Positions 25,067-60,865 are shown, counted from the stretch's first letter. The stretch: 64,000 nt of DNA from Paracoccaceae bacterium (GCA_050299335.1 JBNKVT010000021.1:76756-140755), one strand, 5' to 3'. Numbers and translations are program-made. Notes: a model not told the origin generated them from the sequence alone.

Positions 25067-25151
25067 TCTCCTTCTTGAAAATACCTCCGGGGGGTGTGGG
25101 GGGCGGAGCCCCCCACGGATCGTCCCGCGAAGCGGGGCGAAATTCCTTGCC

Positions 25152-29986: not shown

Positions 29987-30055
29987 GGTCCCCGCTCCTC
30001 CTTCTTCCAAATACTCCCGCCGGAGGCGTCCCGGACCATCGGGCCCGAGGACATG

Positions 30056-32934: not shown

Positions 32935-33007
32935 CGTTGATGGTGGGATTCGAACCCACTACCGACAGATTAACAGTCTGCTGCTCTACCCGATGAGCTA
33001 CATCGTC
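32935..33007 (-). tRNA. tRNA-Asn(GTT)-like gene
   Basis: Minus strand: D-arm GCTC/GAGC, anticodon arm GCAGA-CTGTTAA-TCTGT, T-arm GTGGG-TTCGAAT-CCCAC. By eye the acceptor stem shows two mismatches (5' GACGATG vs 3' CATCAAC). Confidence 0.6.
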
Positions 33008-33008
33008 G

Positions 33009-33081
33009 TGGTCGACATGAACGGACTCGAACCGCTGACCTCCGGGTCACCCCCGGCGCTCTACCCCTGAGCTACATCCCG
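33009..33081 (-). tRNA. Second tRNA-like gene (D- and T-arms canonical, CCA encoded; anticodon arm atypical)
   Basis: GCTC-AGGGGTA-GAGC D-arm. AGCGG-TTCGAGT-CCGTT T-arm. 3' CATGTCG-A-CCA. The anticodon region CCGGG-GGTGA-CCCGG gives only a 5-nt loop by eye. Confidence 0.45.
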
Positions 33082-33346: not shown

Positions 33347-33778
33347 ATGCGTATCTTGCCACTTCTGCTTGCGGTGCTCCTCGCCGCCCCGCTCACCGCG
33401 CAGCCCTTCCCGGGACCCGACTTTTTCGCCGGCAGCTACGAGGTCACCGGCCGCAGTCCGGGTGCGGACGGGTTGCCGTTTTCCGACTGGCTGCACATCC
33501 AGCCGGAGGCGGGCGCGGAGCCCGACCGGATGATCCTGTCTTCCTGCCGCTCCGGCACCGGCGGCCTCTGGCCCGCTCAGCTCGTCCACGAAGGCCAGGC
33601 TCCCTACGAAGGCCGCCTCGGTGACTGGCAGCTCTTCTGCCGCTTCGCTACCGATAGCGACAACTACCCCCGCCTCACCTGCTACGCGCTCGACAGCGAA
33701 ACCGACGAGATCCCCGGCCTCCTCACATTCTGGCCCGCCCACTGGCCGACGCCCGCCCACGCCGCGTCCTGCGACTGA
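33347..33778 (+). CDS. Secreted hypothetical protein (signal peptide, 4 Cys)
   Basis: MRILPLLLAVLLAAPLTAQP signal peptide. Coding-like composition. Confidence 0.55.
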   Translation: MRILPLLLAVLLAAPLTAQPFPGPDFFAGSYEVTGRSPGADGLPFSDWLHIQPEAGAEPDRMILSSCRSGTGGLWPAQLVHEGQAPYEGRLGDWQLFCRFATDSDNYPRLTCYALDSETDEIPGLLTFWPAHWPTPAHAASCD

Positions 33779-33882
33779 CGCCCCTTTATCCTCCTTCTTG
33801 AAAATACTCCCGCCGGAGGCTCCCGTCCGCGCGCCCCGACCCGAGCGCTGCCCGCCAGTCACGAAACGGACTCCTCTCTCCC

Positions 33883-34289
33883 TGTCAGGGCAGGGCAATT
33901 GCATTTGGGTCCGCCTGTCACGGGAAACCCGCCTGAGGTTCGGTTTCCTCCATTCGAGCCAACCCCCAATCCCGCCCCAAACTCACAATCCCGCCGTCCC
34001 CATCCCTCCCCGCTCCACACCCGCACGGTGCGACCAGCACCGGGCCAAGCCCGACCCATCCGAGGGGCGGGCGCGTTGCTGACGCTCGCTCGGAGCGGCC
34101 CGCTCGGAAGTAACTGCGCCATAAAGTGGTCCGCAGAGGGCTCCGGACAGCGCCCACCCTGGGTCGGGCTTGGCCCTCATTTCGAAGTCCCGGCAGGGCA
34201 GGGCAGATTTCGGGAAGGTGCAGGATCAGGGCGGGCAAAGTGAATGCGAAGGAGACAATACTTTCAGATGCGATTGCCCTGCCCTGTCA
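33883..34289. mobile_element. MITE-like ~410-bp element, copy 1 (TIR ~GACAGGGCAGGGCAAT(T/C)GC)
   Basis: An imperfect 20-28-bp terminal inverted repeat flanks a C/G-rich core with no credible ORF. It is near-identical, in inverted orientation, to 50938-51345. Confidence 0.7.
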
Positions 34290-34406
34290 TGGGGAGGGGC
34301 CGGGGGAGGGGGTTTGTGCATCCGACCCGGCAAAATCCAGGAAACGCACATGAAACCTCAAAATTTCAGAATGATAGCCCGCGCTTCCCAGTGAAATGCC
34401 CCAGCC

Positions 34407-34967
34407 TCACGTCGCTGGCTGCAACGTCCCCGCCTTCACCCGGCAGAACGCATCATGGATTTCATGATACAGGCTCACCCGCTCCTCCGGGCTCAGAAAC
34501 GCCCCCAGCTCGATCTCGCGGCCATTGCCGTCAAGGGTCAGGTAGTTCTCGATCCGGGCGTTTTTATAGAGCTGCAACCTCACCCAGAACGGGTTCGCAT
34601 CCCAGGTCTTCACCCGCCCGAACGGATCGCGCCTTGTGACGGTGATCAGGTCCGGCCAGACATTGACCTCCTCGGTCAGCCGCCCATCATAATAGCTCCG
34701 CTTCAGCGCCAGATAGAGCATCAGCAAAGCCCCTGCCAGGAAGGGGATCAGGAAGGCCCCGACCTTGGTGCCCAGGAGCGGCAGCAGCGGGAAACACATG
34801 GCTGTGGCAGTGAGCCAGAGGATGGTGCGGAACTCGTCCTGGGACAACGACCGGTTCGGCCAGAGCACGAAGGACAGCGCAGGCGGGTCCTCGCGGGGAT
34901 GGTCCCACGCCGGGGCAGCCTTGCCCTCGATGCCGGTACTGTCTGACATGTCGGGCTGATGATCCAT
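34407..34967 (-). CDS. DUF2244 membrane protein (cytochrome oxidase-associated)
   Basis: Two N-terminal TM helices. Typical position next to ctaD in Alphaproteobacteria. Confidence 0.55.
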   Translation of the reverse strand: MDHQPDMSDSTGIEGKAAPAWDHPREDPPALSFVLWPNRSLSQDEFRTILWLTATAMCFPLLPLLGTKVGAFLIPFLAGALLMLYLALKRSYYDGRLTEEVNVWPDLITVTRRDPFGRVKTWDANPFWVRLQLYKNARIENYLTLDGNGREIELGAFLSPEERVSLYHEIHDAFCRVKAGTLQPAT

Positions 34968-35073
34968 CAGGGCCCCTGTCGCTGGTCACACAAATCCTGC
35001 CTCGGCAGTGGAACAAGCCTAGGCCCGGACGGCGAAATAGGCAAGCGACATTCAACGGGACCAAGGTCCGGGT

Positions 35074-35586
35074 TCAAGAGGTCTCACCACCCGCCCGAGG
35101 CCCTCTGAGCAGGGCGTGAGCGACGATTCCGATGAACAGGACAAGGGAAAGCACCGTCAGGAAGGCCCCGACGGACGAGATAAAATTTATCTGCGCAAAC
35201 GCCTCGGGATAGTCGATATACCGCCGCGGCATCCCCTGCCGCCCAAGATAGTACTGCGGAAAGAATGTCAGGCAGATGCCGCCAAACATCATCCAGAACT
35301 GCACCTTGCCCCAGAAAATGGACAAGTGCCGCCCGGTGACCCGCCCGAACCAGTGATAGAAGGCGGCGAAGAACAGGAAAACCGCCCCGAACGACATCAC
35401 ATAGTGAAAATGCGCCACCACGTAATAGGTATCGTGATAGGCGCGGTCGATCGGGGGCCGGTTCAGCTTCCAGCCGATCCAACCGCCCACGGCGATCAGG
35501 AACAGCAGGCCGAAGATCCACAGAAGCGGCAGCTTCACCTCGGCAAGCCCGCGCCACAGGCTCCTGATCCATTCCTGAAACGTCAC
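35074..35586 (-). pseudogene. Truncated duplicate of cytochrome c oxidase subunit I (C-terminal ~170 aa only)
   Basis: [20 protein letters not shown]...[14 protein letters not shown] aligns with residues ~400-560 of the adjacent full-length CtaD. There is no N-terminal heme/Cu-binding portion. Confidence 0.6.
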
Positions 35587-35656
35587 ACCACCCCCCGCTT
35601 CAAGGAAAAGGCCGCAGATCGCGCTGCGGCCTTTTCCAAGTCCAATTCAACCGGTC

Positions 35657-37285
35657 TCAGTGCCCGGGATGCTTGTCCCACATGTCCTGCGTCGGCAGCG
35701 TCTCGAACGTGTGTTCGGGCGGCGGATTGGGCAGGGTCCATTCAAGGGTGTCGGCATATTCGCCCCAGTAATCCGGCTCGGTCACCAGCGCCCCTTTGCG
35801 GAGCGTGTAGAAGACGATGCCGAAGAACAGCAGGAAGGACGCACCAGAGATGAACGCCCCGATGGACGAGACGAAGTTCCACTGGGCGAACTGCTCGGGG
35901 TAGTCAATATACCGCCGCGGCATCCCCTGCCGCCCGAGGAAGTGCTGCGGGAAGAATGTCAGGTTGGCGCCGATGAACATCATCCAGAAATGCACCTTGC
36001 CCCACATCTCGGGATATTGCCTGCCGGACATCTTGCCGATCCAGTAATAGGCCCCGGCGAAGATGCCGAAGACGGCACCGAGGCTCATCACATAGTGGAA
36101 ATGGGCGACGACATAGTAGGTGTCGTGATAGGCCCGGTCGATGGGCGCCTGGGACAGCACCACGCCGGTCACACCGCCAACGGTGAACAGGAACAGGAAG
36201 CCGATGGCCCAGAGCATCGGCGTCTTCAGCTCGATCGAGCCGCCCCACATGGTGGCGATCCACGAGAAGATCTTCACGCCCGTCGGCACCGCGATCACCA
36301 TCGTCGCCAGCATGAAATAGCTCTGCTGCCGGACCGACATGCCGACCGTGTACATATGGTGCGCCCAGACAACAAAGCCCAGCGCCCCGATGGCGATCAT
36401 CGCAAAGACCATCGGCAGATAGCCGAAGATCGGCTTTTTCGAGAAGGTCGCAATGACATGGGACACGATCCCGAAGGCCGGCACGATGACGATATAGACC
36501 TCGGGATGGCCGAAGAACCACAGGATGTGCTGATAGAGGATCGGGTCGCCGCCACCGGCCGCATCGAAGAAGGTGGTGCCGAAATTCCGGTCGGTCAGCA
36601 ACATGGTGATGGCGCCCGCCAGCACCGGCAGCGACAGAAGGATCAGGAAGGCTGTGACCATGATCGACCAGGCGAAAAGCGGAACCTTGAACAGCGTCAT
36701 GCCCGGGGCGCGCATATTCAGGAAGGTTGTAATCATGTTGATCGCACCAAGGATCGACGAGGCCCCCGACAGGTGCACGGCGAAGATCGCGAGGTCCGTG
36801 GACCAGCCCGCTTCGTTTGTCGATAGCGGCGCGTAAAGCACCCAGCCGATGCCCGATCCAAGCTGCCCGTTACCGCCCGGTGACACCACTGACAGCACCG
36901 CCAGCGAGGACCCCGCGACATACAGCCAGAACGAGAGGTTGTTCATCCGCGGGAAGGCCATGTCGGGCGCGCCGATCATCAGCGGCATGAAATAGTTGCC
37001 GAAACCGCCGAAAAGCGCCGGAATGACCACGAAGAACATCATCAGGATGCCGTGGGCGGTCACCATGACGTTCCACAGATGGCCGTTCGGTTCGCCGTCG
37101 AGCAGCATGTACTGCACGCCCGGCTCCATCAGTTCCAGCCGCATATACATGGTGAAGGCGACCGAGATGAAGCCAAGCGCCGCCGAGACCACCAGATAGA
37201 GGATACCGATATCCTTGTGGTTGGTGGACATGAACCAGCGGGTGAAGAAGCCGCGTTCGTCGTGATGTGCCGTTGCGTCAGCCAT
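35657..37285 (-). CDS. ctaD: Cytochrome c oxidase subunit I (aa3-type)
   Basis: The start was reset to [27 protein letters not shown]. Conserved His ligands and the GHPEVY motif are present. Confidence 0.9.
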
Positions 37286-37502
37286 TCGTTTAAGTCTCCC
37301 GAGACCCTTGACGGTCGTTCCGGTGCCGCATGAGACAGGCAAGGCGGAACCCGCCTGCCGCGGCACGAATTTGCCCGGCACCATAGTGACCCGGACCCGA
37401 TTGCTCAAGCCAAATGCGCCGGACCCGGCGGTCGAATTGTCGCGGTCGCAATGGTTAAAATACCGTGAAATTGCCGTAGGTTTCGCCGCCCGGGCGGCGT
37501 TT

Positions 37503-38249
37503 TCAGTCTCCGAGACGCCGCCGTGCCGATTTCGCCAGCATCACCAGCCTCGGCAGGGCCTGGACGGAATCCTCCAGCGGCCTGTCGAACCACAGCCGCC
37601 TTGCCGCGTCGCCCAGCACCAGATCGATCCCCTCGGCATCGATCCCCGTCAGCCGCCAGTTGCCGGGCTCGGCACCTGCGAGACGGGCATAGAGGGAAAC
37701 CGCATCGGAATGGTCGGCATTCATGTGATCGAGAATTCCGGGCTCGGCGGTGGCGAGACCTGCGCAGTCCGGGGCCAGAAGATCGCTGCCGGTCAGCTCA
37801 AATGCCTTGCCGAACCCGCCATTGAGCGCGGCCCGCTCCAGCTGGATGCGCCAGAAGGCGAAATCGGGAAAATCGGCGTAGAGAGCGGATTTGGGCTGGC
37901 GGGAAAGCACCCGGGCGCGGGCCTGCGCCCGGTCGTCTCCTGCCAGCATTTCCGCCTTTCCGATCAAGGTGATACGCGGATGCGCCAGCGGATCTCCCTT
38001 TCCGGGCTCGCCGACCAGCAGCGAGGCCCGGGAATCGGCCTCAAGAGCGGCGAAATGGCCCGAAAGCCGCGAGATCAGGATTAGGGGATGGCCGGCATGA
38101 TCGGTGGCCAGTGCCACGCGGCTGGCCAGGGGGCTGCCTGTAGTGGGATCGAGGCAGGCGAGCGCGCCGAAACGGGCGGTGCGCAGAAGGGTCTTGGCCA
38201 GTCTTCTGGCCTCGTCATCGGTCGGGCGGAGCGTTTCTGGCGGTGGCAT
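37503..38249 (-). CDS. HugZ-like / pyridoxamine-5'-phosphate-oxidase-related protein with a DUF2470-like C-terminal domain
   Basis: FGALACLDP...[14 protein letters not shown] split-barrel pattern. Confidence 0.5.
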
Positions 38250-38285
38250 CGTCGTTCAGGTCAGCCTTCCGGTCAGCGCAGGGAA

Positions 38286-38807
38286 TCAGCCGCCGATCAG
38301 CGGCCCCTGAGCCCCGCGCTGTCCGAGGACCTGGACCCACCACAGCTTGCCGTTGGTTTCCTGATACCAGCCGAAACCGATCTCGTTCGAACGCGGATTG
38401 GCCATGACGCGGCGGGTGGAGGGGTCTGACAGCCAGCTCTGGATCAGGGTGAACTCGTCGTCGAAGCTTTCGGAGATATTCTCGCCGGTCACCTGCCCGC
38501 GATACCCGGCGCGGTCGGCGCGGTCCTTGGGCGAGGTGCCGTCCGATCCGAAATGCCAGGCGCGTTTCTGCACCGACATGTCGCGGGCATGGGTGCGCGC
38601 GGCGGCGGTCAGTTCGGGCGAGACCTGCACCGGACCCATGCCGTTCTCGGCGCGAAAGGCGTTCACGGTATCGACATGGCGGGTGATGATGGCGTCGGTG
38701 TCCCGCGGCGAAATGATCGGCACGCCGCCTGCGCCGGTGGTCGGGGTCGGATCGCAGCCGGCAAGTGCGAGGGGGACAAGTACGACAAGGAACAGGGCAC
38801 GAATCAT
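38286..38807 (-). CDS. CAP/SCP (PR-1-like) domain lipoprotein
   Basis: Lipobox LALAGC. CAP-domain motifs (HVDTVNAFRAENG..., GENI, FGW). Confidence 0.6.
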   Translation of the reverse strand: MIRALFLVVLVPLALAGCDPTPTTGAGGVPIISPRDTDAIITRHVDTVNAFRAENGMGPVQVSPELTAAARTHARDMSVQKRAWHFGSDGTSPKDRADRAGYRGQVTGENISESFDDEFTLIQSWLSDPSTRRVMANPRSNEIGFGWYQETNGKLWWVQVLGQRGAQGPLIGG

Positions 38808-39007
38808 GAAATGGCTCTTCTTGGGACTGTGGCAACAGACTGCTGCTCGGCGCATGCTCTAGCGCGATTGGCGCATGGATTCAAACGCATCTTGGCGCTT
38901 GGCAAAAAAGTGACACCGATCTGTCACGCGACACCGTGAATCGCCTTGATCCGGCGAATCATGCTAGGGTCCGGACTTTCCGGATTGGCCAGATTGAGTA
39001 GTGGATC

Positions 39008-39655
39008 ATGAGCGACAACACCGACACCAGACTAGACCGCCGCAGCTTTGCAAGACTGACGGCGGGATTCGGCCTGAGCGCGGCCGGCCTTCTGACCGGC
39101 GCCTGCTCGACCGCCTCCGATATCGCCGCACCTGCGGACGAGAGCCTCTCCAGCCGCGGGTCCGAGCCCCTGCCGGGCACGGGCGCCGAGCTCGACCGCC
39201 GGGTCTCGGGTTTCTCCGCGATGCGGTGGCAGGACCATTTCAGCTCGCTTTCAGGTGGCGCGATCCTGGTGGATATTTCCTCTCGGTCGCTACATTTCTG
39301 GCCCGCTGACGGGTCGTATTACAAGGTCTACCCGACCTCGGTGCCACTGACCCAGGAAATGACCCGCAGGGGCCGGACCTCGATTGTGCGCAAGCAGGTC
39401 GGACCGGATTGGCGCCCGACCCCGAACATGTTGCAGCGTGATCCGAGCCTGCCGCCTTATGTCGGCCCCGGCCCGCAGAACCCTCTGGGGACCCATGCGC
39501 TCTATCTCGGCTGGACCTATTACCGGATTCACGGCACCAACGACACCCGCAAGATCGGGCGGAAATCCTCGAATGGCTGTATCGGGCTCTATAACGAGCA
39601 TATCGCCGAACTGTTCGAGGCCACCAGGGTCGGCACCCAGGTCAAGGTCGTCTGA
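39008..39655 (+). CDS. L,D-transpeptidase (YkuD family) with a Tat signal
   Basis: RRSFARL twin-Arg motif. Catalytic HGT...SNGCIGL. Confidence 0.75.
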   Translation: MSDNTDTRLDRRSFARLTAGFGLSAAGLLTGACSTASDIAAPADESLSSRGSEPLPGTGAELDRRVSGFSAMRWQDHFSSLSGGAILVDISSRSLHFWPADGSYYKVYPTSVPLTQEMTRRGRTSIVRKQVGPDWRPTPNMLQRDPSLPPYVGPGPQNPLGTHALYLGWTYYRIHGTNDTRKIGRKSSNGCIGLYNEHIAELFEATRVGTQVKVV

Positions 39656-39879
39656 CCGGTCGGCCGTCGTCCATTGCCGCTGTGCTCGGTCAGACGACCT
39701 CGGGCCGGATGGTGGTCAGCAAAGGTCCGATGTCTTGCACACAGGCCACAGTTTGCGATTTTATACTGGCCCTGCATTGCGTCGGTTGCATCCGCGAGGC
39801 TTGTCGAGGTAAGTGGGGCGGGTATCAACCGGCTCGCCGTGTCATCATCGGGTAATTCTGGGGCCAACAGGAGAAGAAC

Positions 39880-40116
39880 ATGAAAATCGTAGCCTATACC
39901 GCCGCCGCCATCATCGCCGCCGGCACCGCCGTCGCCGGCACCCTGGTCTTCGAGGCCGAGGAAGAACAGGAAATCGTCGTCGTCGAGGACGAGCCGATGG
40001 GCAGCTCCAACGCCGCCTGGGTGGTGCCGCTTCTCGCCATCGCCGTGATCGGGCTGGCCATCGCCTCCAGCGGCGACGACGATGACGACGACAGCGATCC
40101 GTCCGTGCGTGGATGA
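39880..40116 (+). CDS. Small acidic membrane-associated hypothetical protein (78 aa)
   Basis: GGAGAAG RBS. Two hydrophobic segments. Poly-Asp C-terminus. Confidence 0.4.
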   Translation: MKIVAYTAAAIIAAGTAVAGTLVFEAEEEQEIVVVEDEPMGSSNAAWVVPLLAIAVIGLAIASSGDDDDDDSDPSVRG

Positions 40117-40386
40117 TTTGTGGGTTTCAGCCCGGGTCGCGTCGCAGCGGTCGTCAGGTAAAGACATGAGAGGCGAGCCTGTTTGGCTCGCCTTCCTTTT
40201 TTACACGCACGTGGGTGCCTTCCTTTGGTGCCAGCCGGACCCGGAAAGGTATTTCCGGTTAACTCCGCCCCCTTGGACCGTAGGTCGCCGGATCGTCTTT
40301 CCTTGGGCAACTTACCGCTATTGAAATGCGCGTTGTCCGATACCGGTCGTCGCATGCGTTGCTGCGGCCACGCCCTGCGGACAGGG

Positions 40387-40797
40387 TCATTGCGTCTCCC
40401 ACGACGGTATCCGGTCCAGAGTCCGAAGCCAGGAGACCATCGATCTGGTCCAGTATTGCCGGGAAGGGACAAGCCGGTCGCGCTGGCGGATGGCGCCGGT
40501 CCTGAGACCGAGGCTGCGCGGCGACGGGTCCGCCGGGTCGGAGGTGGCCCAGAGCCCGGTACCGCAATCGCCGCAAAAGACCTGCTGGCGGATGCGCCCG
40601 CTTTCGGCGGTCTTGAGATAGACCTTCGGGGTTCCGGTCAGCAGGGTGAAATCCTCTTCCCGGCAGGGGGCGACGGTGCGAAAGGCCGCCGAGCCGAAGG
40701 TCTGGCAGTCGGTGCAATGGCAGATGCGAACCTTGGCCGGATCAATCTCGGCCCTGTAGGTGATCGCGCCACAATGGCAGGCGCCGTCGATTTGCAT
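40387..40797 (-). CDS. GFA (glutathione-dependent formaldehyde-activating / CENP-V) family protein
   Basis: CHCGAITY...CHCTDCQ...CGDCG zinc-site pattern. Confidence 0.7.
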   Translation of the reverse strand: MQIDGACHCGAITYRAEIDPAKVRICHCTDCQTFGSAAFRTVAPCREEDFTLLTGTPKVYLKTAESGRIRQQVFCGDCGTGLWATSDPADPSPRSLGLRTGAIRQRDRLVPSRQYWTRSMVSWLRTLDRIPSWETQ

Positions 40798-40824
40798 GAT
40801 ATGCCCTTTCCGCCTTCTTCGCCC

Positions 40825-42590
<1,766 letters not shown>

Positions 42591-42665
42591 TTAAAGCGAG
42601 TCCCGAAAGGCCTTTGGGACGGCGACCGGTTGCCCGGTCCGATCGGGACCGGCGGCGTGGCGGGT

Positions 42666-43664
42666 TCAGACCAGCCGCGCGACCACGAAATCCGCCAGAT
42701 CGGCCAGAAGCCGCTTCAGGTCGCCGCCCGGCAGGGGCCCCAGCGCCGATTTCGCCGTTCCGGCCCAGTTCAGCGCCCGCGTCCGTGTTGCCTCCAGCGC
42801 TCCGTGCCGGCCCATCAGCTCCAGTGCCCGCTCCAGATCCTCGTCCCGCTGATCTCCCTTTTCGATCACCCGCGCCCAGAACGCGCGCTCTTCGGCATCC
42901 GCCTCGGCCACCGCCAGGATCACCGGCAGGGTGATCTTGCGCTCGCGGAAATCGTCGCCGACATTCTTGCCCAGCCGCTTCGACGAGCCGCCATAATCCA
43001 GCAAATCGTCGACGATCTGAAAGGCGATCCCCAGCGCGTCGCCGTAGTCGCGCAACGCCGTCACCTGATCCTCCGGGGCGTCGGCTATCACCCCGCCGAC
43101 CTCGCAGGCCGCCGCGAACAGAGCCGCCGTCTTGCCTCGGATCACCTGCATATAGGTGGCCTCCGGGGTTGAAAGCCTGGAGGCCACCGACAATTGCAGC
43201 ACCTCGCCCTCGGCGATCACCGCCGAGGCATTGGCCAGGATATCCAGCACCCTGAGTGAGCCGGTCTCGACCATCAGCTGGAACGAGCGCGAGAACAGGT
43301 AGTCCCCCACCAGCACCGAGGACTGATTGTCCCAAAGCAGGTTCGCCGTCGGCCGCCCCCGCCGCTGATCGCTTTCGTCGACCACGTCGTCATGCAGGAG
43401 CGTCGCGGTATGGATGAACTCCACAGTCGCCGCCAGCCGGATATGGTCCTCGCCGGCATAGCCGCACAGGCGTGCCGCCGCCAGGGTCAGGAGCGGGCGC
43501 AGCCGCTTGCCGCCGGCTTCGACCAGATGGGCGGTGACCTCCGGGATGCGCGGGGCGTGTTCGGAGGCCATCCTTGTGCGGATCAGCCCGTTCACCCGCT
43601 CCATGTCCGGCGCCATCAGCGCCGAGAGCTGTTCGAAGGCATTGATCGGGGTCTCGACCGTCAT
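42666..43664 (-). CDS. ispB: Polyprenyl (octaprenyl) diphosphate synthase
   Basis: DDVVD and DDLLD aspartate-rich motifs. The start was reset to MTVETP. Confidence 0.8.
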   Translation of the reverse strand: MTVETPINAFEQLSALMAPDMERVNGLIRTRMASEHAPRIPEVTAHLVEAGGKRLRPLLTLAAARLCGYAGEDHIRLAATVEFIHTATLLHDDVVDESDQRRGRPTANLLWDNQSSVLVGDYLFSRSFQLMVETGSLRVLDILANASAVIAEGEVLQLSVASRLSTPEATYMQVIRGKTAALFAAACEVGGVIADAPEDQVTALRDYGDALGIAFQIVDDLLDYGGSSKRLGKNVGDDFRERKITLPVILAVAEADAEERAFWARVIEKGDQRDEDLERALELMGRHGALEATRTRALNWAGTAKSALGPLPGGDLKRLLADLADFVVARLV

Positions 43665-43703
43665 CGCTCGACCTCCGGTGCCGGAGCCCCTAGATTGATC
43701 CCC

Positions 43704-43925
43704 ATGAAAGAGCTTCTCCGGACCACCGACCCCACGATCATCTCCTTTGCCACCGCCCTGTTGCGGGCCGAGGATATAGAGGCCTTTGTCCTCGACGTCC
43801 ATATGAGCGTCCTCGAAGGCGGTATCGGCGCCTTCCCCCGGCGGCTTGCCGTCGCCGACGAACATCTGGGCGAGGCCCGCGCCATCCTCGCCGCCAACGG
43901 CATCGACCTCCCGGACGCCCCGTGA
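43704..43925 (+). CDS. DUF2007-like small protein
   Basis: 73 aa. Divergent from ispB. Its stop overlaps the next start. Confidence 0.45.
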   Translation: MKELLRTTDPTIISFATALLRAEDIEAFVLDVHMSVLEGGIGAFPRRLAVADEHLGEARAILAANGIDLPDAP

Positions 43926-44689
43926 GCGCCGTCCCGACCCCCGGCCTCACCAACGACGCCTTCCTCGGAGGCCGCCTGCACCTCAACCAGCCCGCCCAGG
44001 GCTACCGCGCCGCCACCGACCCCGTCCTTCTGGCCGCCGCCGTTCCGGCAAGCCCCGGCCAGTCGGTGCTCGAACTTGGCTGCGGGGCGGGCGCGGCGAT
44101 TCTCTGCCTGATGGCGCGGGTGGAGGGTCTGGACGCCCATGGTCTCGAACTTCAGCCCTTCTATGCCGGCCTTGCGCGGCGGAATGCCGACGAAAACGCA
44201 CTCCGGCTGACGGTTCATGACGGCGACCTCGGCGAGATGCCCGCCGGGTTGCGCGGACGTTCCTTCGATCATGTCCTCGCCAACCCGCCCTTTCACCGCA
44301 CGGACGATAGCGGCGCCGAAGACCCGGGCCGCGATACCGCGCATCGGGAGGGCGGGCGCGATCTTGCCGATTGGATCGATGCCGGGTTGCGACGATTGAA
44401 GCCGAAAGGCTGGCTCAGCCTCATCCACCGCACCGCAAGGCTGGGCGAGATGCTGGCCGCGCTCGAGGGAAGGGCCGGCGATATCCGCGTCCTGCCGCTG
44501 GCCGCCCGTCAGGGACGCGCCGCCGAGCGGGTGATCCTGCTGGCCCGCAAGGGCACCCGCGGCGCCCTGTCGCTGCTGCCGCCCTTTGTATTGCATGAGG
44601 GCGATTCCCATATCCGTGACGGGGTCGGATTCTCGCCGGCGGCGGAGGCGGTTTTACGTTTTGGTAACAGTTTGCCACTTAGCCTCTGA
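43922..44689 (+). CDS. SAM-dependent methyltransferase, tRNA1(Val) m6A37 methyltransferase-like (YfiC/TrmN6 family)
   Basis: GCGAGA SAM motif. NPPF catalytic motif. Confidence 0.65.
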   Translation: MSAVPTPGLTNDAFLGGRLHLNQPAQGYRAATDPVLLAAAVPASPGQSVLELGCGAGAAILCLMARVEGLDAHGLELQPFYAGLARRNADENALRLTVHDGDLGEMPAGLRGRSFDHVLANPPFHRTDDSGAEDPGRDTAHREGGRDLADWIDAGLRRLKPKGWLSLIHRTARLGEMLAALEGRAGDIRVLPLAARQGRAAERVILLARKGTRGALSLLPPFVLHEGDSHIRDGVGFSPAAEAVLRFGNSLPLSL

Positions 44690-44778
44690 CCCGGTCACGC
44701 GGCGCTCAGTTTCCGTGACTTTTAGCGCGTTCTGTGCTGCAATACCTGGCACTGAACCAGATTCGAAGGGAGGCATAT

Positions 44779-44952
44779 ATGAGCTTGAGTTCTCACCTGG
44801 AGGAACTGCGGAAAAAACACGAAATGCTGGCGGCTCAGATCGAGGAGGAGGAAAGGCATCCCGCCGCAGACGACCTGGAAATCCGTGAACTCAAACGCCT
44901 GAAACTGCATATCAAGGAAGAAATCGCGCGCAAAACCCAGCAAGTGGCCTAG
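44779..44952 (+). CDS. DUF465 (YdcH-like) small protein
   Basis: AAGGGAGG RBS. HLEELRKKHEML...ELKRLKLHIKEEI matches the DUF465 core. Confidence 0.55.
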   Translation: MSLSSHLEELRKKHEMLAAQIEEEERHPAADDLEIRELKRLKLHIKEEIARKTQQVA

Positions 44953-45003
44953 GCCCCGACGCGACGTTCAATAGCCGGGTCCGGCGAATCGGGCCCGCCG
45001 CGC

Positions 45004-45864
45004 TCAGCCCCGTCTTGTCAGACCGGCAATCGCCGCGCCTGCGGTAATCAGTACGGTCGCGACACCCAGTCCGGCATCCGGATCGGCCATCCCGGTCGCG
45101 ACCAGCAGCAGGGTCGACAGCACCGGTGCCGCATAGGCCAGCACCCCCAGAAGCTGGATATTCCCGCCCTTCACCCCGATATCCCACAGGAAGAACGCCA
45201 GTCCCACCGGCCCGAGCCCCAGCGCCGCCACCGATCCCCAGGCGAGAGGCGTTGCGGGCCAGCGCGTCGTCTCCAGCCCCAGATGCGCCGCCCAGGACAG
45301 GATCGCCGCGCCGAGACAGAACAGCGTCACCGCCGAGCTCGGCACCGATCCGAAGCGGCGGCTGAGCACCGAATACCCGGCCCAGAACAGCGCGCTTGCC
45401 ATCGCGGCGGCATAGCCGAGCCAGTTCTCCGCTGCCAGCGTCCCTGCCTTCGGCCCCAGCAGCACCCCGGCCCCGGCAAAGGCGACAAGCGCGCCGAGGA
45501 TATGGGCCGGGCGCAGGCGCTCGCCGGGCAGCAGGCCGGAAAACAGCACGATCAGCAGCGGCCAGAGATAGTTCAGGAGATTGGCCTCCGCCGGCGGGGC
45601 GAGGCTGAGGGCGGTGAAATAGAGAAAGTGAAAGCCGAACAGCCCGCCGACCCCGACCGCGATTGCGGCCGGCGGGATCGCGTGCAGGGACGGCAGGCCG
45701 GGGCCGGTGAGGGCGCGGATCAGGCCGATGCCGGTGGCGATGGTGAAGCACATGGCGTTCAGCTGCAGGGGCGGCACCCCGTCGGCGCCGACCGTGAACA
45801 ATGCCAGCGACGCCCAGAGCAGTACAGCGCCGAACCCGGTCAGGGTTGCCCTTGCCGGGCTCAT
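45004..45864 (-). CDS. DMT-superfamily (EamA-like) transporter
   Basis: About 10 TM segments. Duplicated EamA pattern. Confidence 0.7.
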   Translation of the reverse strand: MSPARATLTGFGAVLLWASLALFTVGADGVPPLQLNAMCFTIATGIGLIRALTGPGLPSLHAIPPAAIAVGVGGLFGFHFLYFTALSLAPPAEANLLNYLWPLLIVLFSGLLPGERLRPAHILGALVAFAGAGVLLGPKAGTLAAENWLGYAAAMASALFWAGYSVLSRRFGSVPSSAVTLFCLGAAILSWAAHLGLETTRWPATPLAWGSVAALGLGPVGLAFFLWDIGVKGGNIQLLGVLAYAAPVLSTLLLVATGMADPDAGLGVATVLITAGAAIAGLTRRG

Positions 45865-46592
45865 GGCTTCCTGGCGGTGCGCCTGAAGAACTCGACGATC
45901 CAGCGAGCCCAGTCGGGATTGTCGAGATCGCCGGAAAGCGAGGCCCTGCCGGTATCGGCGACGGCATCGGGCACGATGCCGCGCAGCCGGTCCTCGATCA
46001 GGTCGGCGACGAAGTCGGGCGAGAATTCGGGATGCGACTGGATCGAGATCGCCAGCGGCGCCTCCGCATCGCCATAGGCAAGGGCGGCATATTCGCAGAA
46101 ATCCGACCCGGCCAGCACCACGCTGTCCGGCGGCTGCACCGTCACCTGATCCTGATGCACCGCATGGCCGCGATAGGTCTTGCCGAGGCCCTGCATCCAG
46201 GACGGCGCGTGTCTGACGATATAGTCATGCACCCCGACCCCCCAGCCCTTGGGCGATTTCTCGGCCCGTCCGCCCATGGCCTCGGCCAGGATCTGGTGGC
46301 CGAAACAGACCCCCGCCACCGGCACCTTCGCCGCCAGACAGGCGCGCAGGAACTCCTTCAGGGGCGCAATCCAGGGCAGGTCGTCATAGACCCCATGGCG
46401 CGAGCCGGTGACCAGCCAGGCGTCGGCGTCATCGGGGCCGGCGGGCATCTCGCCATTGACGACGCTGAAGCTGCGGAAGCTCAAGCCCGGGTCGACGGCG
46501 CCCAGCAGACGCTCGAACATCTGGGGGTAGGTGCCGTGGGTGCCGACGATGGTCTCATGGACTTCGCCGGTTTCGAGAATGCCGATTTTCAT
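45861..46592 (-). CDS. Class I glutamine amidotransferase-like protein
   Basis: GVCFGHQ nucleophile elbow. His/Glu C-terminal region. Confidence 0.7.
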   Translation of the reverse strand: MKIGILETGEVHETIVGTHGTYPQMFERLLGAVDPGLSFRSFSVVNGEMPAGPDDADAWLVTGSRHGVYDDLPWIAPLKEFLRACLAAKVPVAGVCFGHQILAEAMGGRAEKSPKGWGVGVHDYIVRHAPSWMQGLGKTYRGHAVHQDQVTVQPPDSVVLAGSDFCEYAALAYGDAEAPLAISIQSHPEFSPDFVADLIEDRLRGIVPDAVADTGRASLSGDLDNPDWARWIVEFFRRTARKP

Positions 46593-46662
46593 GGGTCCGC
46601 TCCGCCGATCCGGAGCGCGATCCTAGCCCGCGCTCCGGAAAGCTCAACAGCGAAAATCCGGC

Positions 46663-47388
46663 TCAGACGAAGAACTGCCCGCCATTGGCCGACAGGGTCG
46701 AGCCGGTGATGAACCCGGCATCGTCAGAGGCGAGAAAGACCACGCAGCGGGCGATTTCCTCGGGCTCGCCGAGGCGGCCGACGGGGATCTGCGGGATGAT
46801 GCGCTCGTTCAGGACCTTCTCGTCGATGGCGCGGACCATTTCGGTGCCGATATAGCCCGGGCAGATGGCGTTGACGGTGATCCCCGCCCGCGCCCCTTCC
46901 TGGGCCAGCGCCTTGGTGAAGCCCAGATCGCCGGCCTTGGCCGAGGAATAGTTCGCCTGGCCCGCCTGACCCTTCTGGCCGTTGATCGACGAGATATTGA
47001 TGACCCGCCCGAATTTCCGGTCCCGCATGCCGGTCCAGACCGGATGGGTCATGTTGAACAATCCCGAGAGATTGGTGTCGATGACCTCGCGCCATTGCTC
47101 GGGAGTCATGCGGTGGAACATGGCGTCGCGGGTGATCCCGGCATTGTTCACCAGCACCTCGACCGGACCAAGCTCGGCCTCGACCTTGGCGATGCCCGCG
47201 ACACAGGCCTCGTAATCGGCCACGGACCATTTATAGGTCTTGATGCCGGTCTCTTCGGTGAATTTGGTGGCGGCCTCGTCATTTCCGGCATAGTTTGCCG
47301 CAACGGTATAGCCTGCGTCCTTCAGCGCCACCGAAATCGCAGCCCCTATGCCGCGCGTTCCTCCGGTGACCAGTGCAACTCGTCCCAT
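46663..47388 (-). CDS. phaB: Acetoacetyl-CoA reductase (SDR)
   Basis: TGGTRGIG. NAGITRD. YSSAKAG catalytic motif. Located next to phaA. Confidence 0.85.
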   Translation of the reverse strand: MGRVALVTGGTRGIGAAISVALKDAGYTVAANYAGNDEAATKFTEETGIKTYKWSVADYEACVAGIAKVEAELGPVEVLVNNAGITRDAMFHRMTPEQWREVIDTNLSGLFNMTHPVWTGMRDRKFGRVINISSINGQKGQAGQANYSSAKAGDLGFTKALAQEGARAGITVNAICPGYIGTEMVRAIDEKVLNERIIPQIPVGRLGEPEEIARCVVFLASDDAGFITGSTLSANGGQFFV

Positions 47389-47413
47389 GGTTTCCCCCTT
47401 TATCCTTCTGAGC

Positions 47414-47483
47414 CATGGTGCGTGAAATCACGCACCCTACGTTATTGTTTCCATTGCGTGTAGGGTGCGTGATTTCACGCACC
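47414..47483. repeat. REP-like hairpin pair (inverted plus direct copies of GTAGGGTGCGTG-N4-CACGCACC) in the phaA-phaB spacer
   Basis: CATGGTGCGTGAAATCACGCACCCTACG is the exact reverse complement of the unit at 20965-20988. A direct copy follows 17 nt later. Confidence 0.65.
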
Positions 47484-47496
47484 TTTCCTCAAGGTC

Positions 47497-48669
47497 TTAC
47501 CGCTCGACGCACAACGCCACACCCATGCCGCCGCCGATGCACAGCGTCGCCAGGCCCTTTTTCGCCCCGCGCCGTTTCATCTCGAACAAGAGCGTGTTCA
47601 GCACCCGCGCCCCCGAAGCCCCGATCGGGTGGCCGATGGCAATGGCCCCGCCGTTGACGTTCACGATCGCCGGGTCCCAGCCCATGTCCTTGTTGACCGC
47701 ACAGGCCTGTGCCGCAAAGGCCTCGTTGGCCTCGACCAGATCGAGATCGCCAACTGACCAGCCGGCCTTTTCCAGCGCCTTGCGCGACGCATAGATCGGC
47801 CCCACGCCCATGATCGAGGGGTCGAGCCCGGCGGTGGCATAGGAGGCGATCCGCGCCAGAGGTTCGATCCCGCGCTTCGCGGCCTCGTCCTCGCTCATCA
47901 CCAGCACTCCGGCGGCCCCGTCATTCAGCCCCGACGCATTCGCCGCCGTCACCGTTCCGTCCTTCGAAAACGCCGGTCGCAGTTTCTGCATCGCCTCAAT
48001 GGTCGCGCCGTGGCGGATATATTCGTCCTTGTCGACCACGATATCGCCCTTGCGGGTCTTCACCGTGAAGGGGATCACCTCGTCGTCGAAGCGCCCGGCC
48101 TTCTGCGCCGCCTCGGCCTTGTTCTGCGAGGCCACGGCGAATTCATCCTGCATCTCGCGGCTGATCTGCCATTTCCCTGCGACGTTCTCGGCCGTCACCC
48201 CCATATGGTAGTCGTTGAACGCGTCCCAGAGCCCGTCCTTGATCATCGTGTCGGTGAAGCTCATGTCACCCATCTTCTTGCCAGCCCGCAGATGGGCGGC
48301 ATGAGGCGACAGGCTCATGCTTTCCTGACCGCCCGCGACCACGATCCCGGCATCGCCGAGCTGGATATGCTGCGCGGCCAGCGCCACTGCCCTCAGCCCC
48401 GAGCCGCAGACCTGGTTGATCCCCCAGGCCGCTGCCTCGATCGGCAGACCGGCCTTGATATGGGCCTGACGAGCCGGGTTCTGTCCCTGACCGGCGGTCA
48501 GCACCTGGCCGAGGATGGTCTCGGACACGTCTTCGGCGGCCACCCCCGACCGCTCCAGAAGGGCCGAGATCACCGAAGCGCCCAGATCATGGGCCGGCGT
48601 ATCGGCGAAGGCGCCGCTGAAGCTGCCGACGGCGGTGCGCGCAGCCGATGCGATGACGATATTGGTCAT
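47497..48669 (-). CDS. phaA: Acetyl-CoA acetyltransferase (beta-ketothiolase)
   Basis: Thiolase active-site Cys (VNQVCGSGL) and the C-terminal CIGGGMG motif. Confidence 0.9.
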
Positions 48670-48766
48670 GGTAGTCTCCCCACTTTCCGCGTTCTGCGGA
48701 ACGATTTCAGGTTTTGTTGCAGTGCAGCATTAACTGGTTCCGGATGTATTGCCAAGGCCCATTTTG

Positions 48767-49987
48767 TCACAGCCTAACCGAGTCGATGCCGCGGATAAAC
48801 TCCCCGATCGGGCGCCAGACCGTTTCTTCGGCCTTCGATCCTGCAACCATCGCCACATGGCCCAACGGCACCGACAGATGCGCGGCATCCGTGATCGTCG
48901 CGGCCAGAGGTCCGGCCTCCGCGGGCGGAGCGATTCGGTCGGCGGTGCCGGTGACCACCAGAGACGGGACCGCGATGCGCCCGGGATTGACCCGCTCGCC
49001 CATCAGCCGCCAACGCCCCTCGGCGGGAGAGTCGCGAAGCTGCCAGTCCACCATCACATCGGCGGCCAGCGGCCCGGCCAGCGGCACCCCGTCGGCGAGC
49101 CAGTCCTCAAGGGCGACGAAGACCCGGGCGGCGTCGCTGTCGGGGTCCATCGCGGCGAAGCGGCGGAACTTGCGGGCGGCCTGGATCGGGTTGATGGCGG
49201 CGAAGAGGCCTTGCAGGATTTCGACCGGCACCAGCCCGAACACCTCGACCAGCTGCGCCAGCGCCGTCTCGATCCGCCCGATCCCGTAAGCCCGCGCCGC
49301 CAGACGCATCTGTGCGGCCACCCCGCGCCCGCCGGTAAATCGCCACGGCGCGCCGATGGTCACCAGCCCCGTGATCCCCGGCCCAAGAGCGGCGAGCCCC
49401 GCCGCCAGCGTCCCGCCCATGCAATAACCCATCAGCACCGGCGGCGCCCCGGCATGGACCGAGACGGCGGCAAGTGCAGGCAGCAGGCGGCGGCTGGCAT
49501 AGCTGTCGAGACCGAATGTCCACTCCGCTTCGCCCGGTTCCCCCCAGTCGAGCAGATAGGGCCGCAGACCCGAGGCCGCGAGCGCGCGCAGCATAGACCG
49601 CCCCGGCAGGAGATCGAGGATATAGGCCCGGTTGATCAACGAGGGCAGCACCAGCACCGGCGGGCCGGTCCCCCCATAGGCGAGGAGCCGCGAGGAGCCG
49701 TCGCGCCAGACCACCGGCAGGTCGGGCTCCAGGCGGCGAAAAGGATGCCGCTGCCACGCTTCGATCCCGTCGAGCATCGCGTCGAGCCGGTCCAGCGCCT
49801 CGCCCAATACGGCGCGGGGATCGAGGGGCTTCAGGTCCGGGCAACCGAGATCGTCGTGCAGGGGCACCGCGCCGCTCCCGGCGAGGGGGGCAAGTTGCAG
49901 CGCCTGCGCATAGGCAAGCGCCGCTGTTCCCAGGTGAAAAGGAAGGGGGCTCGGCTGGCCGAGGCGGTGCGAAGCCGGCGCGGTCAT
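48767..49987 (-). CDS. Alpha/beta-hydrolase protein with a G-x-C-x-G box, PHA synthase (class III/IV PhaC)-like
   Basis: GYCMGGT lipase-like box with Cys. 406 aa. Divergent from phaR. Confidence 0.45.
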   Translation of the reverse strand: MTAPASHRLGQPSPLPFHLGTAALAYAQALQLAPLAGSGAVPLHDDLGCPDLKPLDPRAVLGEALDRLDAMLDGIEAWQRHPFRRLEPDLPVVWRDGSSRLLAYGGTGPPVLVLPSLINRAYILDLLPGRSMLRALAASGLRPYLLDWGEPGEAEWTFGLDSYASRRLLPALAAVSVHAGAPPVLMGYCMGGTLAAGLAALGPGITGLVTIGAPWRFTGGRGVAAQMRLAARAYGIGRIETALAQLVEVFGLVPVEILQGLFAAINPIQAARKFRRFAAMDPDSDAARVFVALEDWLADGVPLAGPLAADVMVDWQLRDSPAEGRWRLMGERVNPGRIAVPSLVVTGTADRIAPPAEAGPLAATITDAAHLSVPLGHVAMVAGSKAEETVWRPIGEFIRGIDSVRL

Positions 49988-50275
49988 TTTGGGTCGGGAT
50001 CCGGCCTGGGCGATGGCGGCGGAATGGGACCCTTTGCGGCATAAAGCGCCAGCGAAGTCTCGAACAGGTCAAGATAGCGGGCGGCGGCCTTCCTGGCCTC
50101 CTCCCCTTGATCCGGCCTGTCTTCGGGCGGCTTTGCCAGCGTCCCCTCCGTCCCTTGCAGCCGCCAAGCTAGCACCCTCCGCCGCGCTTGGCGACGTTCG
50201 CTTGCGCAAAAATACGTTGCAGCGCGAAAGCCAGCCGTTACAGTCGGAAGACAACAATCAGCCCAGGGGGATGGT

Positions 50276-50869
50276 GTGGCGAAGTCTGATCCGAAGGATG
50301 GCGCCCCTGTCATCATCAAGAAATACGCCAATCGGCGGCTCTACAACACCGCCAAGTCCAGCTATGTCACGCTCGACCACCTCGCGCAGATGGTCCGCGA
50401 GGATATCGATTTCGTCGTGGTGGACGCCAAGACCGGCGAGGACATCACCCGCTCGGTTCTGGCACAGATCATCTTCGAGGAAGAGGCCAAGGGCCAGACC
50501 ATGCTGCCGCAGAACTTCCTGCGCCAGCTGATCCGGCTCTATGGCGACACGCTGCAGGGCGTGGTACCGAGCTATCTCGAGGCGTCGATGGAGACCTTCT
50601 CGAAGAACCAGGAACAGATGCGTGAGCAGATGAGCCGGGTCTTCGGCACCAATCCGGCAACAGCCGGGTTCGAGGCGCTGGCGCGGCAGAACATGGAAAT
50701 GTTCGAAAACGCCATGCGCATGTTCACCCCGTTCGGTACCGCCCGTCCCGAAGAGCCCCAGGAGGCCGGGCCCGACAGGCCCGAGCCGAAAGGCAGCGAG
50801 ATCGACGACCTGAAATCGCAGATCGACGCGATGCGGGACCAGATTTCCAAGCTGGTGAAGGACCGTTAG
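50276..50869 (+). CDS. phaR: PHA synthesis repressor PhaR
   Basis: IKKYANRRLYNT conserved N-terminal motif. GTG start with an AGGGGGAT RBS. Confidence 0.8.
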   Translation: MAKSDPKDGAPVIIKKYANRRLYNTAKSSYVTLDHLAQMVREDIDFVVVDAKTGEDITRSVLAQIIFEEEAKGQTMLPQNFLRQLIRLYGDTLQGVVPSYLEASMETFSKNQEQMREQMSRVFGTNPATAGFEALARQNMEMFENAMRMFTPFGTARPEEPQEAGPDRPEPKGSEIDDLKSQIDAMRDQISKLVKDR

Positions 50870-50937
50870 GGCGCGCGAGGCGCGGCCCGGAGCCGCCTCT
50901 GCCTGCGCCTCTCATCCAGAGCCTACTCCCTGCTCCC

Positions 50938-51345
50938 CCTCACAAGGGCAGGGCTATCGAATATGAAAGTATTGCGTCTCTTTCGCGTACATGTCGCCCG
51001 CCCTGATCCTGCACCTTCCCGAAACCTGCCCTGCCCTGCCGGGACTTCGAAATGAGGGCCAAGCCCGACCCAGGGAGGGCGCTGTCCGGGCTTCTCTGCG
51101 GGCCACTTTATGGCGCAGTCGCTTCCGAGCGGGCCGCTCCGAGCGAGCGTCAGCAACGCGCCCGCCCCTCGGGTGGGCTTGGCCCGGTGCTGGTCGCACC
51201 GTGCGGGTGTGGAGCGGGGAGGGATGGGGGCGGCGGGATTGTGAGTTTGGGGCGGGATTGGGGGTTGGCTCGAATGGGAAACCGAACCTCAGGCGGGTTT
51301 CCCGTGACAGGTGACCCAAATGCAATTGCCCTGCCTCACAAGGGA
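50938..51345. mobile_element. MITE-like ~410-bp element, copy 2 (inverted relative to copy 1)
   Basis: It is the reverse complement of 33883-34289 with scattered substitutions. The ORF-track peptides MRAKPDPG... and M(S)PALILHLPE... recur on opposite strands in the two copies. Confidence 0.7.
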
Positions 51346-51545
51346 GAGGGGGGGAATCCCGACATCGGCGCAACGCACCTCCCCTCTCCCCCTGGGAGAG
51401 GGGTTGGGGGAGAGGGGGTCCAGTCGGGTCCCACCATAACCCCATGTCAAACCAAAGGTCCCTGTTGCCATTTGCACCATCTTGCGCCTTGATCCCAAGG
51501 GTTTAGAAAGCGTAGTTTAAAGCCCGTGGCGGGTTTCGAGGTAAG

Positions 51546-60689: not shown

Positions 60690-60738
60690 GGAGCCCGGAC
60701 ACTGGGGCGGGGAGGAGCTTCGCGGCTTCCCTGCCCTA

Positions 60739-60848: not shown

Positions 60849-60865
60849 TAGCCCGATCGGGCGGA

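Follow-up and report, generated by a model that had tools for sequence, protein, structure and literature searches.

Probable ISAs1-derived MITEs at hairpin apices in a Paracoccaceae genome, and apparent inversions between their copies in sister strains

Two short inverted repeats in a 64,000-nt stretch of DNA from a Paracoccaceae bacterium (GCA_050299335.1, JBNKVT010000021.1:76756-140755; referred to as the window, i.e., the whole stretch that was analysed, with positions counted from its first letter) are, with high probability, transposable elements of the miniature inverted-repeat type (MITEs) that derive from the ISAs1 family of insertion sequences (ISs), were presumably moved in trans, and provide, as dispersed copies, homology for host recombination. 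Both copies, referred to as A and B, show the traits of MITEs, i.e., a length of 385–391 bp, terminal inverted repeats, target-site duplications of their own, and the lack of any transposase or conserved open reading frame (ORF), while their attribution to ISAs1 follows from the combination of ISAs1-family ends, an ISAs1-type duplication and this missing transposase. The original prediction for this DNA had already seen in them a pair of non-autonomous transposable-element copies, a view that is borne out by their ends, their own duplications, their relatives elsewhere and the absence of a transposase.

A repeat search of the window revealed four collinear, inverted blocks between 33873–34256 and 50976–51351 (202 nt at 92%, 103 nt at 99%, 44 nt at 91%, and 39 nt at 85% identity), and MAFFT joined copy A and the reverse complement of copy B in one continuous alignment, interrupted only by indels of 1, 2, 5, and 2 nt. 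Since comparison with relatives (see below) set the element ends at CAGGG...CCCTG, copy A measures 391 bp (33891–34281, plus strand, running from its L end to its R end) and copy B 385 bp (50949–51333, minus strand, inverted with respect to A, with its R end at 50949 and its L end at 51333), neither of them with a transposase. Within these refined boundaries both copies were 94.5% identical over 383 aligned positions, in keeping with the earlier observation that 33883–34289 and 50938–51345 are reverse complements of each other at about 90% identity. The terminal inverted repeats of A and B span 17–19 nt, with 15–17 of 19 positions matching inside one copy. Specifically, the left repeat of A (CAGGGCAATTGCATTTG; 33891–33907, plus strand) matches the ISAs1-type terminus seen in relatives, and its right repeat (reverse complement CAGGGCAATCGCATCTG; 34265–34281, minus strand) shows two mismatches to the left one; the L-end repeat of B (reverse complement CAGGGCAATTGCATTTG; 51317–51333, minus strand) is an exact match, and its R-end repeat was read from the sequence as CAGGGCTATCGAATATG (50949–50965, plus strand). 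The motif GGCAGGGCAATTGCATTTG occurred three times in the window at three or fewer mismatches (at the two ends of A and at a single end of B), against 0.01 occurrences expected from shuffles. Moreover, the terminal inverted repeat inside copy A was seen separately by the repeat search, with the match running on into the flanks of a hairpin. An internal GGCAGGGCAGGGCAGATTTCGGG at 34190–34212, with its counterpart at the equivalent spot in copy B, resembles the terminal repeat GGCAGGGCAATTGCATTTGGG; it could represent an end that has degenerated inside the element, or else a further site of transposase binding.

Target-site duplications, a search for which had been proposed with the original prediction, were found at both copies. 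The duplication of B (CCTCACAAGGG; 50938–50948 and 51334–51344) is identical at 11 of 11 positions, and that of A (CCCTGTCAGGG at 33880–33890, CCCTGTCATGG at 34282–34292) at 10 of 11. Both are best counted as 10 bp plus one register-ambiguous base, as the G/C beside the termini can be assigned to either the repeat or the flank. Since each copy has its own duplication of about 10 bp, A and B represent two independent insertions.

Outside these duplications, CCTCTC(T)CCC is present on one side and GGGGAGGG on the other, and once the element and one of its two duplication copies are taken out, a CCTCTCCC-loop-GGGGAGGG hairpin re-forms. Both A and B thus occupy the apex of such a hairpin, and both are intergenic, at 3′ gene ends; for A, the left arm (CCTCTCTCCC) lies at 33873–33882 and the right arm (GGGGAGGGG) at about 34291–34299. 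While the two copies do share the boundaries and terminal repeats that had been described for them, the CCTCTCCC/GGGGAGGG and GGGGAGGGG extensions that had been counted into an extended terminal repeat are arms of the target hairpin plus duplication, since the hairpin is restored once the element is removed, and they belong to the target rather than to the element. A simple scan of the window revealed only one other hairpin of this target type (CCCCTCTCCC-AGG-GGGAGAGGGG; 51381–51403), which lies uninterrupted and unoccupied beside copy B.

A scan for the 19-nt terminus GGCAGGGCAATYGCATYTG, restricted to one genome per species, yielded at least 117 loci in Alpha-, Beta-, and Gammaproteobacteria, Magnetococcales, Nitrospirae, Chloroflexota, Acidobacteriota, Planctomycetota and others. 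Among the loci listed were 53–56 complete small elements, in which an inverted partner motif was located 100–960 bp away, and whose interiors were unrelated to that of the window element and to one another. With the termini set at CAGGG/CCCTG, a perfect 10-bp direct repeat flanked 18 of the 53–56 elements, and a match of at least 9 out of 10 was found at 22 of 53. Since 18 perfect 10-bp repeats cannot arise by chance, the duplications across the small elements, as read from their sequences, prove that the family as a whole has transposed. A few scan matches (e.g., loci L061 and L039) were rejected as elements, being coincidental matches inside coding sequence.

Relatives with coding remnants connect these ends to a transposase. 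Locus L030 is a 962-bp element with the same terminal repeats and a 10-bp duplication (GCCAGCGAGG) that encloses a truncated ORF with matches to PF13808 (DDE_Tnp_1_assoc, 3.5e-26) and PF01609, and shorter remnants of the same type of transposase were found at L007, L036, and L101. When the L030 ORF was compared with plasmids by tblastn, the matching proteins were annotated as ISAs1-family transposases, the best one belonging to ISAzs12 of Azospirillum sp. B510 (51% identity). ISAzs12 itself ends in CAGGGGAATCGCATAC...ATATGCGATTGCCCTG (also given as CAGGGGAATCGCAT...ATGCGATTGCCCTG) and is flanked by the 10-bp duplication CAAGGCGGAC, and an ISAs1-family element of Cereibacter sphaeroides ends in CAGGGGAATCGCGTTTG...CAAATGCGATGGCCCTG with the 10-bp duplication TCCATGTACC. 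The CAGGG ends of the window elements (CAGGGCAATTGCATTTG, CAGGGCAATCGCATCTG, and CAGGGCTATCGAATATG) can thereby be set beside those of annotated ISAs1 elements (CAGGGGAATCGCATAC, CAGGGCAATCGCATAT, CAGGGGAATCGCGTTTG, and CAGGGCCATCGCATTTG); we take CAGGG to be the ISAs1-family end in ISfinder, and the target-site duplication of this family to range from 8 to 10 bp there. Autonomous ISs with the same terminal repeats, for which a check had been proposed, are thus represented at the level of the family, by annotated ISAs1 members (ISAzs12 and the Cereibacter element), and the contrary case that had been considered, i.e., that no relatives bearing these repeats exist elsewhere, does not hold in view of the at least 117 terminus loci and the transposase remnant of L030. 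The ISAs1 DDE transposase with its N-terminal DDE_Tnp_1_assoc domain, present in relatives such as L030, is absent from A and B, which makes these copies non-autonomous derivatives and not ISAs1 insertion sequences as such.

No full-length autonomous partner was present among the 117 loci listed. Two candidates for this role (L110 of 2.5 kb and L074 of 3.8 kb) were rejected, as the genes between their repeats are ordinary ones and each probably consists of two distinct elements, and an IS701-like ORF near the Dehalococcoidia copies was dismissed as their transposase because it lies outside the 164-bp element. Sets of loci from single genomes (L031, L053, and L102 from a Dehalococcoidia metagenome-assembled genome (MAG); L117 and L109 from Magnetococcales; L008, L037, and L090 from a Hyphomonadaceae MAG) comprise several copies that share the ISAs1-type terminus and an identical interior, with many matches situated at contig ends. 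This suggests that these sets are MITE families specific to their lineages, active in recent times, and a cause of fragmentation in MAG assemblies.

Many of the alphaproteobacterial insertions of related elements lie in comparable CTCCCC-loop-GGGGAG hairpins, suggesting a preference for palindrome apices that is chiefly seen at alphaproteobacterial sites and is not absolute. An automated count of hairpin flanks in a fixed register gave 6 of 53 elements against a control mean of 1.1, a figure that undercounts relative to inspection by eye, so that we treat this preference as qualitative. The scan pattern demanded GG before CAGGG and in this way favours such sites.

Sister-strain DNA, retrieved by exact-protein look-ups from two NCBI assemblies and two Logan read sets and 98.8–100% identical to the window (98.8–99.9% for the assemblies), contained further copies: an intact one (copy F; L123:75-498) and halves of two others from which copies C and D were deduced. 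At least five insertion sites (A, B, C, D, and F) are therefore present in the species when window and sister-strain loci are counted together, at odds with the possibility, raised alongside the original prediction, that only the two window copies exist. Three of the Logan short-read contigs stop 50–80 bp inside the element, as would be expected at a repeat. At a single position of the MITE, a 61-bp insertion that has its own hairpin (GGAAACGC(G/T)CC(G/A)GTGGAGCGTTTC) is found in copies C and D (L118:10935-10997, L120:7983-8043). This insertion is missing from A, B, and F, indicating two length subfamilies (of about 390 and 450 bp) in the species.

The arrangement of these copies in two of the sister strains differs from that of the window. 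In GCA_050304915.1, one 89.6-kb contig reads ...eno...phaR-element E-xdhC-ABC transporter and, about 29.3 kb further on and inverted, pheT...DUF58-MoxR-DUF4129-element E′-RNase R-like gene, with copy F located 5 kb past E′. Element E is identical to B at its phaR-proximal end and then continues as another copy type, which has the 61-bp insertion and a terminus and flank unlike those of B (R_B+L_C), and E′ is its reciprocal, with a foreign R half joined to the L half of B and the flank of B (L_B+R_C). A crossover of B with an inverted copy C about 29 kb to its right, outside the window, would produce E and E′ and leave about 29.3 kb inverted. In GCA_050299815.1, one contig carries DUF2244, the R half of A joined to the L half of D (with the 61-bp insertion), and cobA, while another contig carries a cobC-like aminotransferase gene, the R half of D joined to the L half of A, and the 143-aa ORF-tRNA-Band7 region. 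Both D halves have the identical 10-nt flank CCTCCCAGGG on these two different contigs, from which it follows that D was originally a normal insertion between two cobalamin genes, and the geometry of the A×D junctions fits an inversion between A and D. The sequence switches from one copy to the other within intervals no longer than about 75 bp for A×D and of possibly about 13 bp for B×C. Both B×C junctions are found within the single 89.6-kb contig, and those of A×D far inside contigs of 56 and 131 kb.

The claim that A and B are positioned to mediate a large chromosomal inversion is upheld insofar as copies of this element appear to have flipped segments with other copies (B×C and A×D) in sister strains, but the A×B isomer itself was not seen in the window or in the sister assemblies. 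Since A and B each have matching duplications, the window displays the ancestral, un-recombined arrangement; the 16.7-kb segment could be inverted by an A×B exchange, but no such exchange has taken place in it.

Several observations weigh against an origin of A and B as mobile ISAs1 derivatives that recombine with other copies. When the window interior was compared by blastn with the 117 loci listed, matches were confined to the terminal 20–38 nt, and the interior of copy A had no match in PLSDB plasmids by blastn in its distant mode. Exact-pattern scans of JGI metagenomes with a conserved interior 20-mer and 24-mer yielded zero matches each, so this MITE appears either to be lineage-restricted or to have a host that is unsampled in these metagenomes. 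In addition, tblastn with the ISAzs12 transposase as the query revealed no ISAs1-family transposase, either in the window or in the roughly 90 kb from sister strains, a search that covered about 150 kb of this species. The duplications of A and B read as 11 nt against 10 in the family, which we ascribe to the register ambiguity described above, and the duplication of copy C is recognisable at only about 6 of 10 positions. The copy number rests on the window and the sister-strain loci rather than on the whole genome from which the window was taken. Finally, the rearrangements in the sister strains are drawn from draft assemblies, in which chimeric joins are conceivable.

This last point underlies an alternative in which the sister-strain differences are assembly artefacts, i.e., contigs misjoined through the repeat with no inversion having taken place, while the elements would still be MITEs. 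The Logan contigs do break inside the element, showing that assemblers have difficulty with it, and a segment between inverted repeats is a classic case of orientation ambiguity. On the other hand, the copies differ from one another every few tens of bases, and the switch intervals (at most about 75 bp, possibly about 13 bp) are below normal read length and large assembler k-mers. Moreover, both reciprocal chimeras are present in each case, and their junctions are situated inside long contigs (89.6, 56, and 131 kb). We consider misassembly an unlikely source of these junctions, although one that merits serious weight.

The elements themselves encode nothing. The six ORFs inside them had no Pfam match at E≤0.1, failed the filter on G+C content at third codon positions (GC3) that marks the real genes of this genome, and were broken by indels between the copies, all in line with the earlier statement that neither copy contains a credible ORF; by tblastn, the element interior also lacked detectable similarity to a transposase gene. 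It had further been proposed that the elements could carry a promoter or a small RNA, and this was not supported. Consensus scans revealed no sigma-70-like promoter or intrinsic-terminator pattern in either element region, a search of the whole window against Rfam 15 at the gathering score yielded two tRNAs only, and a relaxed search (E≤10) over 33600–34600, comprising copy A and its flanks, gave a single chance-level match outside the element.

Each copy does fold into a long hairpin on either strand, with z-scores of –6.1 and –5.5 against shuffles, because nested internal palindromes are combined with a C-rich half opposite a G-rich half. Together with the location of both copies just downstream of genes and the 103-nt stretch that is 99% identical between A and B, this fold is what would be expected if the repeat were a functional structured RNA or a regulatory module (a small RNA, or a promoter or terminator cassette) and not selfish DNA. 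However, a long fold-back is expected of any palindromic MITE. When five copies were aligned (A, B, F, and the reconstructed C and D; 90.5–94.6% pairwise identity), 116 of the 131 consensus pairs proved invariant and the changes in the other 15 were restricted to one side; no pair was changed on both sides, and 17 were broken in at least one copy. The copies moreover tolerate a number of small indels as well as the 61-bp insertion. Selection for an RNA is thus not apparent, and in the light of these data and of the missing Rfam, promoter and terminator matches such a function is very improbable. Read-through transcripts would still hold a strong hairpin.

Between A and B lies a segment of 16,667 bp (34282–50948) that is no part of the element. 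According to Pfam, its genes encode DUF2244, ctaD/COX1, CAP, YkuD, GFA, cupin, eno, polyprenyl synthetase, EamA, GATase, SDR (phaB), thiolase (phaA), hydrolase, and phaR products, so the housekeeping content given earlier (ctaD, eno, ispB, and phaAB) is recovered as COX1, enolase, polyprenyl synthetase, thiolase, and SDR. The G+C content of the segment (0.648) is close to that of its flanks (0.659 and 0.639), with flanks, elements and segment all ranging from 0.64 to 0.66; the gene order is the same in the sister strains, and PhaA is 82–85% identical to homologues from Ruegeria/Tritonibacter and Paracoccus, which points to a host that probably belongs to the Rhodobacterales. The earlier judgement that the segment is not an island is backed by this housekeeping content and the uniform G+C. 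Inverted copies of one element on both sides, and the fact that two sister strains depart from the window in the sequence directly bordering A or B on the outside, might recall a composite transposon of A, B and the 16.7 kb moving as a unit, for which two transposase-encoding IS copies and one duplication around the whole would be expected. Such a unit is scarcely credible, since neither copy has a transposase, each copy has its own duplication with outer flanks (CCCTGTCAGGG and CCTCACAAGGG) that do not match, the cargo consists of core housekeeping genes of uniform G+C, and the sister-strain junctions pass through chimeric elements with the displaced flanks found at the reciprocal junction, as in homologous exchange and not transposition.

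Equally slight is the probability that a 410-bp intergenic piece was simply duplicated, with no mobility and incidental terminal palindromes: only two copies occur in the window and their interior is absent from the plasmids and metagenomes scanned, but each has its own 10–11-nt direct repeat, their termini match a transposon end that is accompanied by 10-bp duplications in annotated ISAs1 elements and in numerous genomes, and at least three further copies have different flanks in the sister strains. Spread as a repetitive extragenic palindromic (REP) sequence or bacterial interspersed mosaic element (BIME) by a REP-associated tyrosine transposase (RAYT, TnpA-REP) can practically be set aside as well: the elements do sit in REP-like hairpins and GTAG-headed palindromes are present in the window (20965 and 47409–47491), yet REPs are palindromes of 20–40 nt, whereas the elements, at about 390 bp, are ten times that size and have CAGGG terminal repeats and duplications, which REPs lack, while the hairpin is their target, as duplication-flanked insertions into non-hairpin DNA in other phyla show.

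For the ISAs1-derived MITEs that we favour, the course of events may be pictured as follows. An ISAs1-family DDE transposase, encoded outside the window, would have mobilised each MITE in trans, upon which A and B would have inserted separately at hairpin apices in intergenic DNA. The resulting copies, 90–95% identical, would then offer the RecA-type recombination of the host a portable source of homology. B would have exchanged halves with the inverted copy C in one sister strain, turning about 29.3 kb, and in another A would have exchanged halves with D between the two cobalamin genes.

A bolder extension of this scheme may be envisaged, in which an uncatalogued, cross-phylum superfamily of ISAs1-end MITEs has arisen many times independently, its members sharing a near-invariant 17-nt terminus and having unrelated interiors (in Alpha-, Beta-, and Gammaproteobacteria, Nitrospirota, Chloroflexota, Acidobacteriota, Planctomycetota, and others). 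These MITEs would be aimed, in Alphaproteobacteria, at the apices of CTCCCC-loop-GGGGAG hairpins through structure- or palindrome-guided ISAs1 targeting, and recurrent inversions among the nearly identical strains of the present species would mainly break at them. We offer this as a tentative proposal, possible rather than probable.

For this genome, the finding accounts for two regions of "hypothetical ORFs" and marks where assemblies will break or be mis-oriented. The elements are also likely inversion breakpoints among strains that are about 99% identical, and such inversions would reposition core genes (ctaD, eno, and pha) with respect to the replication axis. More generally, the combination of CAGGGCAATCGCATTTG ends with a 10-bp duplication is diagnostic for a type of MITE that is missed by standard IS annotation because it has no transposase, and the insertion sites hint that ISAs1-family transposases prefer hairpin apices. 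How such elements work is understood no differently as a result, this being a well-supported example of a common phenomenon; slightly unusual are the occurrence of ISAs1-end MITEs across phyla with insertion at hairpin apices, and the apparent recurrent inversions between near-identical strains.

Other repeats and genes in the window are unrelated to the MITE or merely lie close to it. An unrelated second family of repeats, about 120 bp long, of lower G+C content and intergenic, occurs at 12320–12440 and 60735–60852, in partial form at 11037–11081 and 12510–12554, and in sister strains at L118:19016-19125 and L123:15136-15247, its members being 79–92% identical. It contains two internal hairpins (GGATCAGATTGAATCAATCTGATCC and TTCAGACTGATTCAGTCTGAA), had no Rfam match at the gathering score, and might represent either an RNA or a further small mobile element. 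At 20965–20996 and 47409–47491 lie palindromes with the pattern GTAGGGTGCGTG(A/T)TTTCACGCACC, one of which forms an inverted pair between phaB and phaA with a spacing of 19 nt. These look like classical REP/BIME units bearing the GTAG head that RAYT transposases recognise, and have no relation to the MITE. A 32-nt direct repeat (TCCTCCTTCTT(G/C)(A/C)AAATACTCCCGCCGGAGGC) is present in three copies of 69–94% identity, each just past the end of a gene (25066–25097, 29996–30027, and 33789–33820), the third being about 70 bp to the left of copy A. Further left of copy A are a 143-aa ORF without a Pfam domain (33347–33778) and, about 800 bp from the element, two adjacent tRNA genes on the minus strand (32935–33081). 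Inside the intervening segment, a 170-aa ORF downstream of the full-length ctaD repeats the C-terminal part of COX1 at 71% DNA identity (ORFs at 35074–35586 and 35657–37408; repeat at 35094–35393 vs. 35785–36084), and this ORF is likewise called as a COX1-domain gene of its own in a sister strain (L120:6420-6932).

Compared with known systems, the window elements share with ISAs1-family ISs the ends CAGGG(C/G)AATCGCAT...ATGCGAT(T/G)GCCCTG and the 10-bp target-site duplication. In contrast to these ISs, which are about 1.2–1.5 kb long and carry a transposase, the 385–391-bp window elements encode nothing and must therefore be mobilised in trans. In the literature searched, coverage of which was partial, no description of ISAs1-derived MITEs was found. 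Insertion into the loops of REP or palindromic-unit sequences, with the arms of the hairpin being split, is known for IS1397, ISKpn1, and ISPpu9/10, which belong to the IS3 and IS110 families and are autonomous. The window elements resemble these in their insertion at the centre of an extragenic palindromic hairpin and differ from them in being non-autonomous and in having different ends, while the hairpin preference of window-type elements is mainly alphaproteobacterial.

An example of a bacterial MITE derived from IS ends is MITEPye1 of Paracoccus yeei, which is related to IS1182 (PMC11578231). Like the window elements, it is small and intergenic, has terminal inverted and direct repeats and no transposase, can fold back into a long stem-loop, is present in low copy number, and has terminal repeats that resemble those of a full-length IS family (PMC11578231). 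The two differ in their parent (IS1182 vs. ISAs1) and in the length of their duplication, and the window elements are further set apart by their location at hairpin apices and by the evidence of copy-to-copy recombination. For such recombination, a study on Streptococcus pyogenes reports IS-mediated chromosomal inversions in which inverted copies serve as substrates of homologous recombination (PMC11602124). Both cases agree in that inverted copies of a mobile element flip the DNA between them, and differ in that the substrates considered here are non-autonomous copies of about 390–450 bp and 90–95% identity, with evidence that comes from draft assemblies. In its outline, the mechanism is a standard one, i.e., a MITE is mobilised in trans by the transposase of an IS family, and its dispersed copies later recombine.

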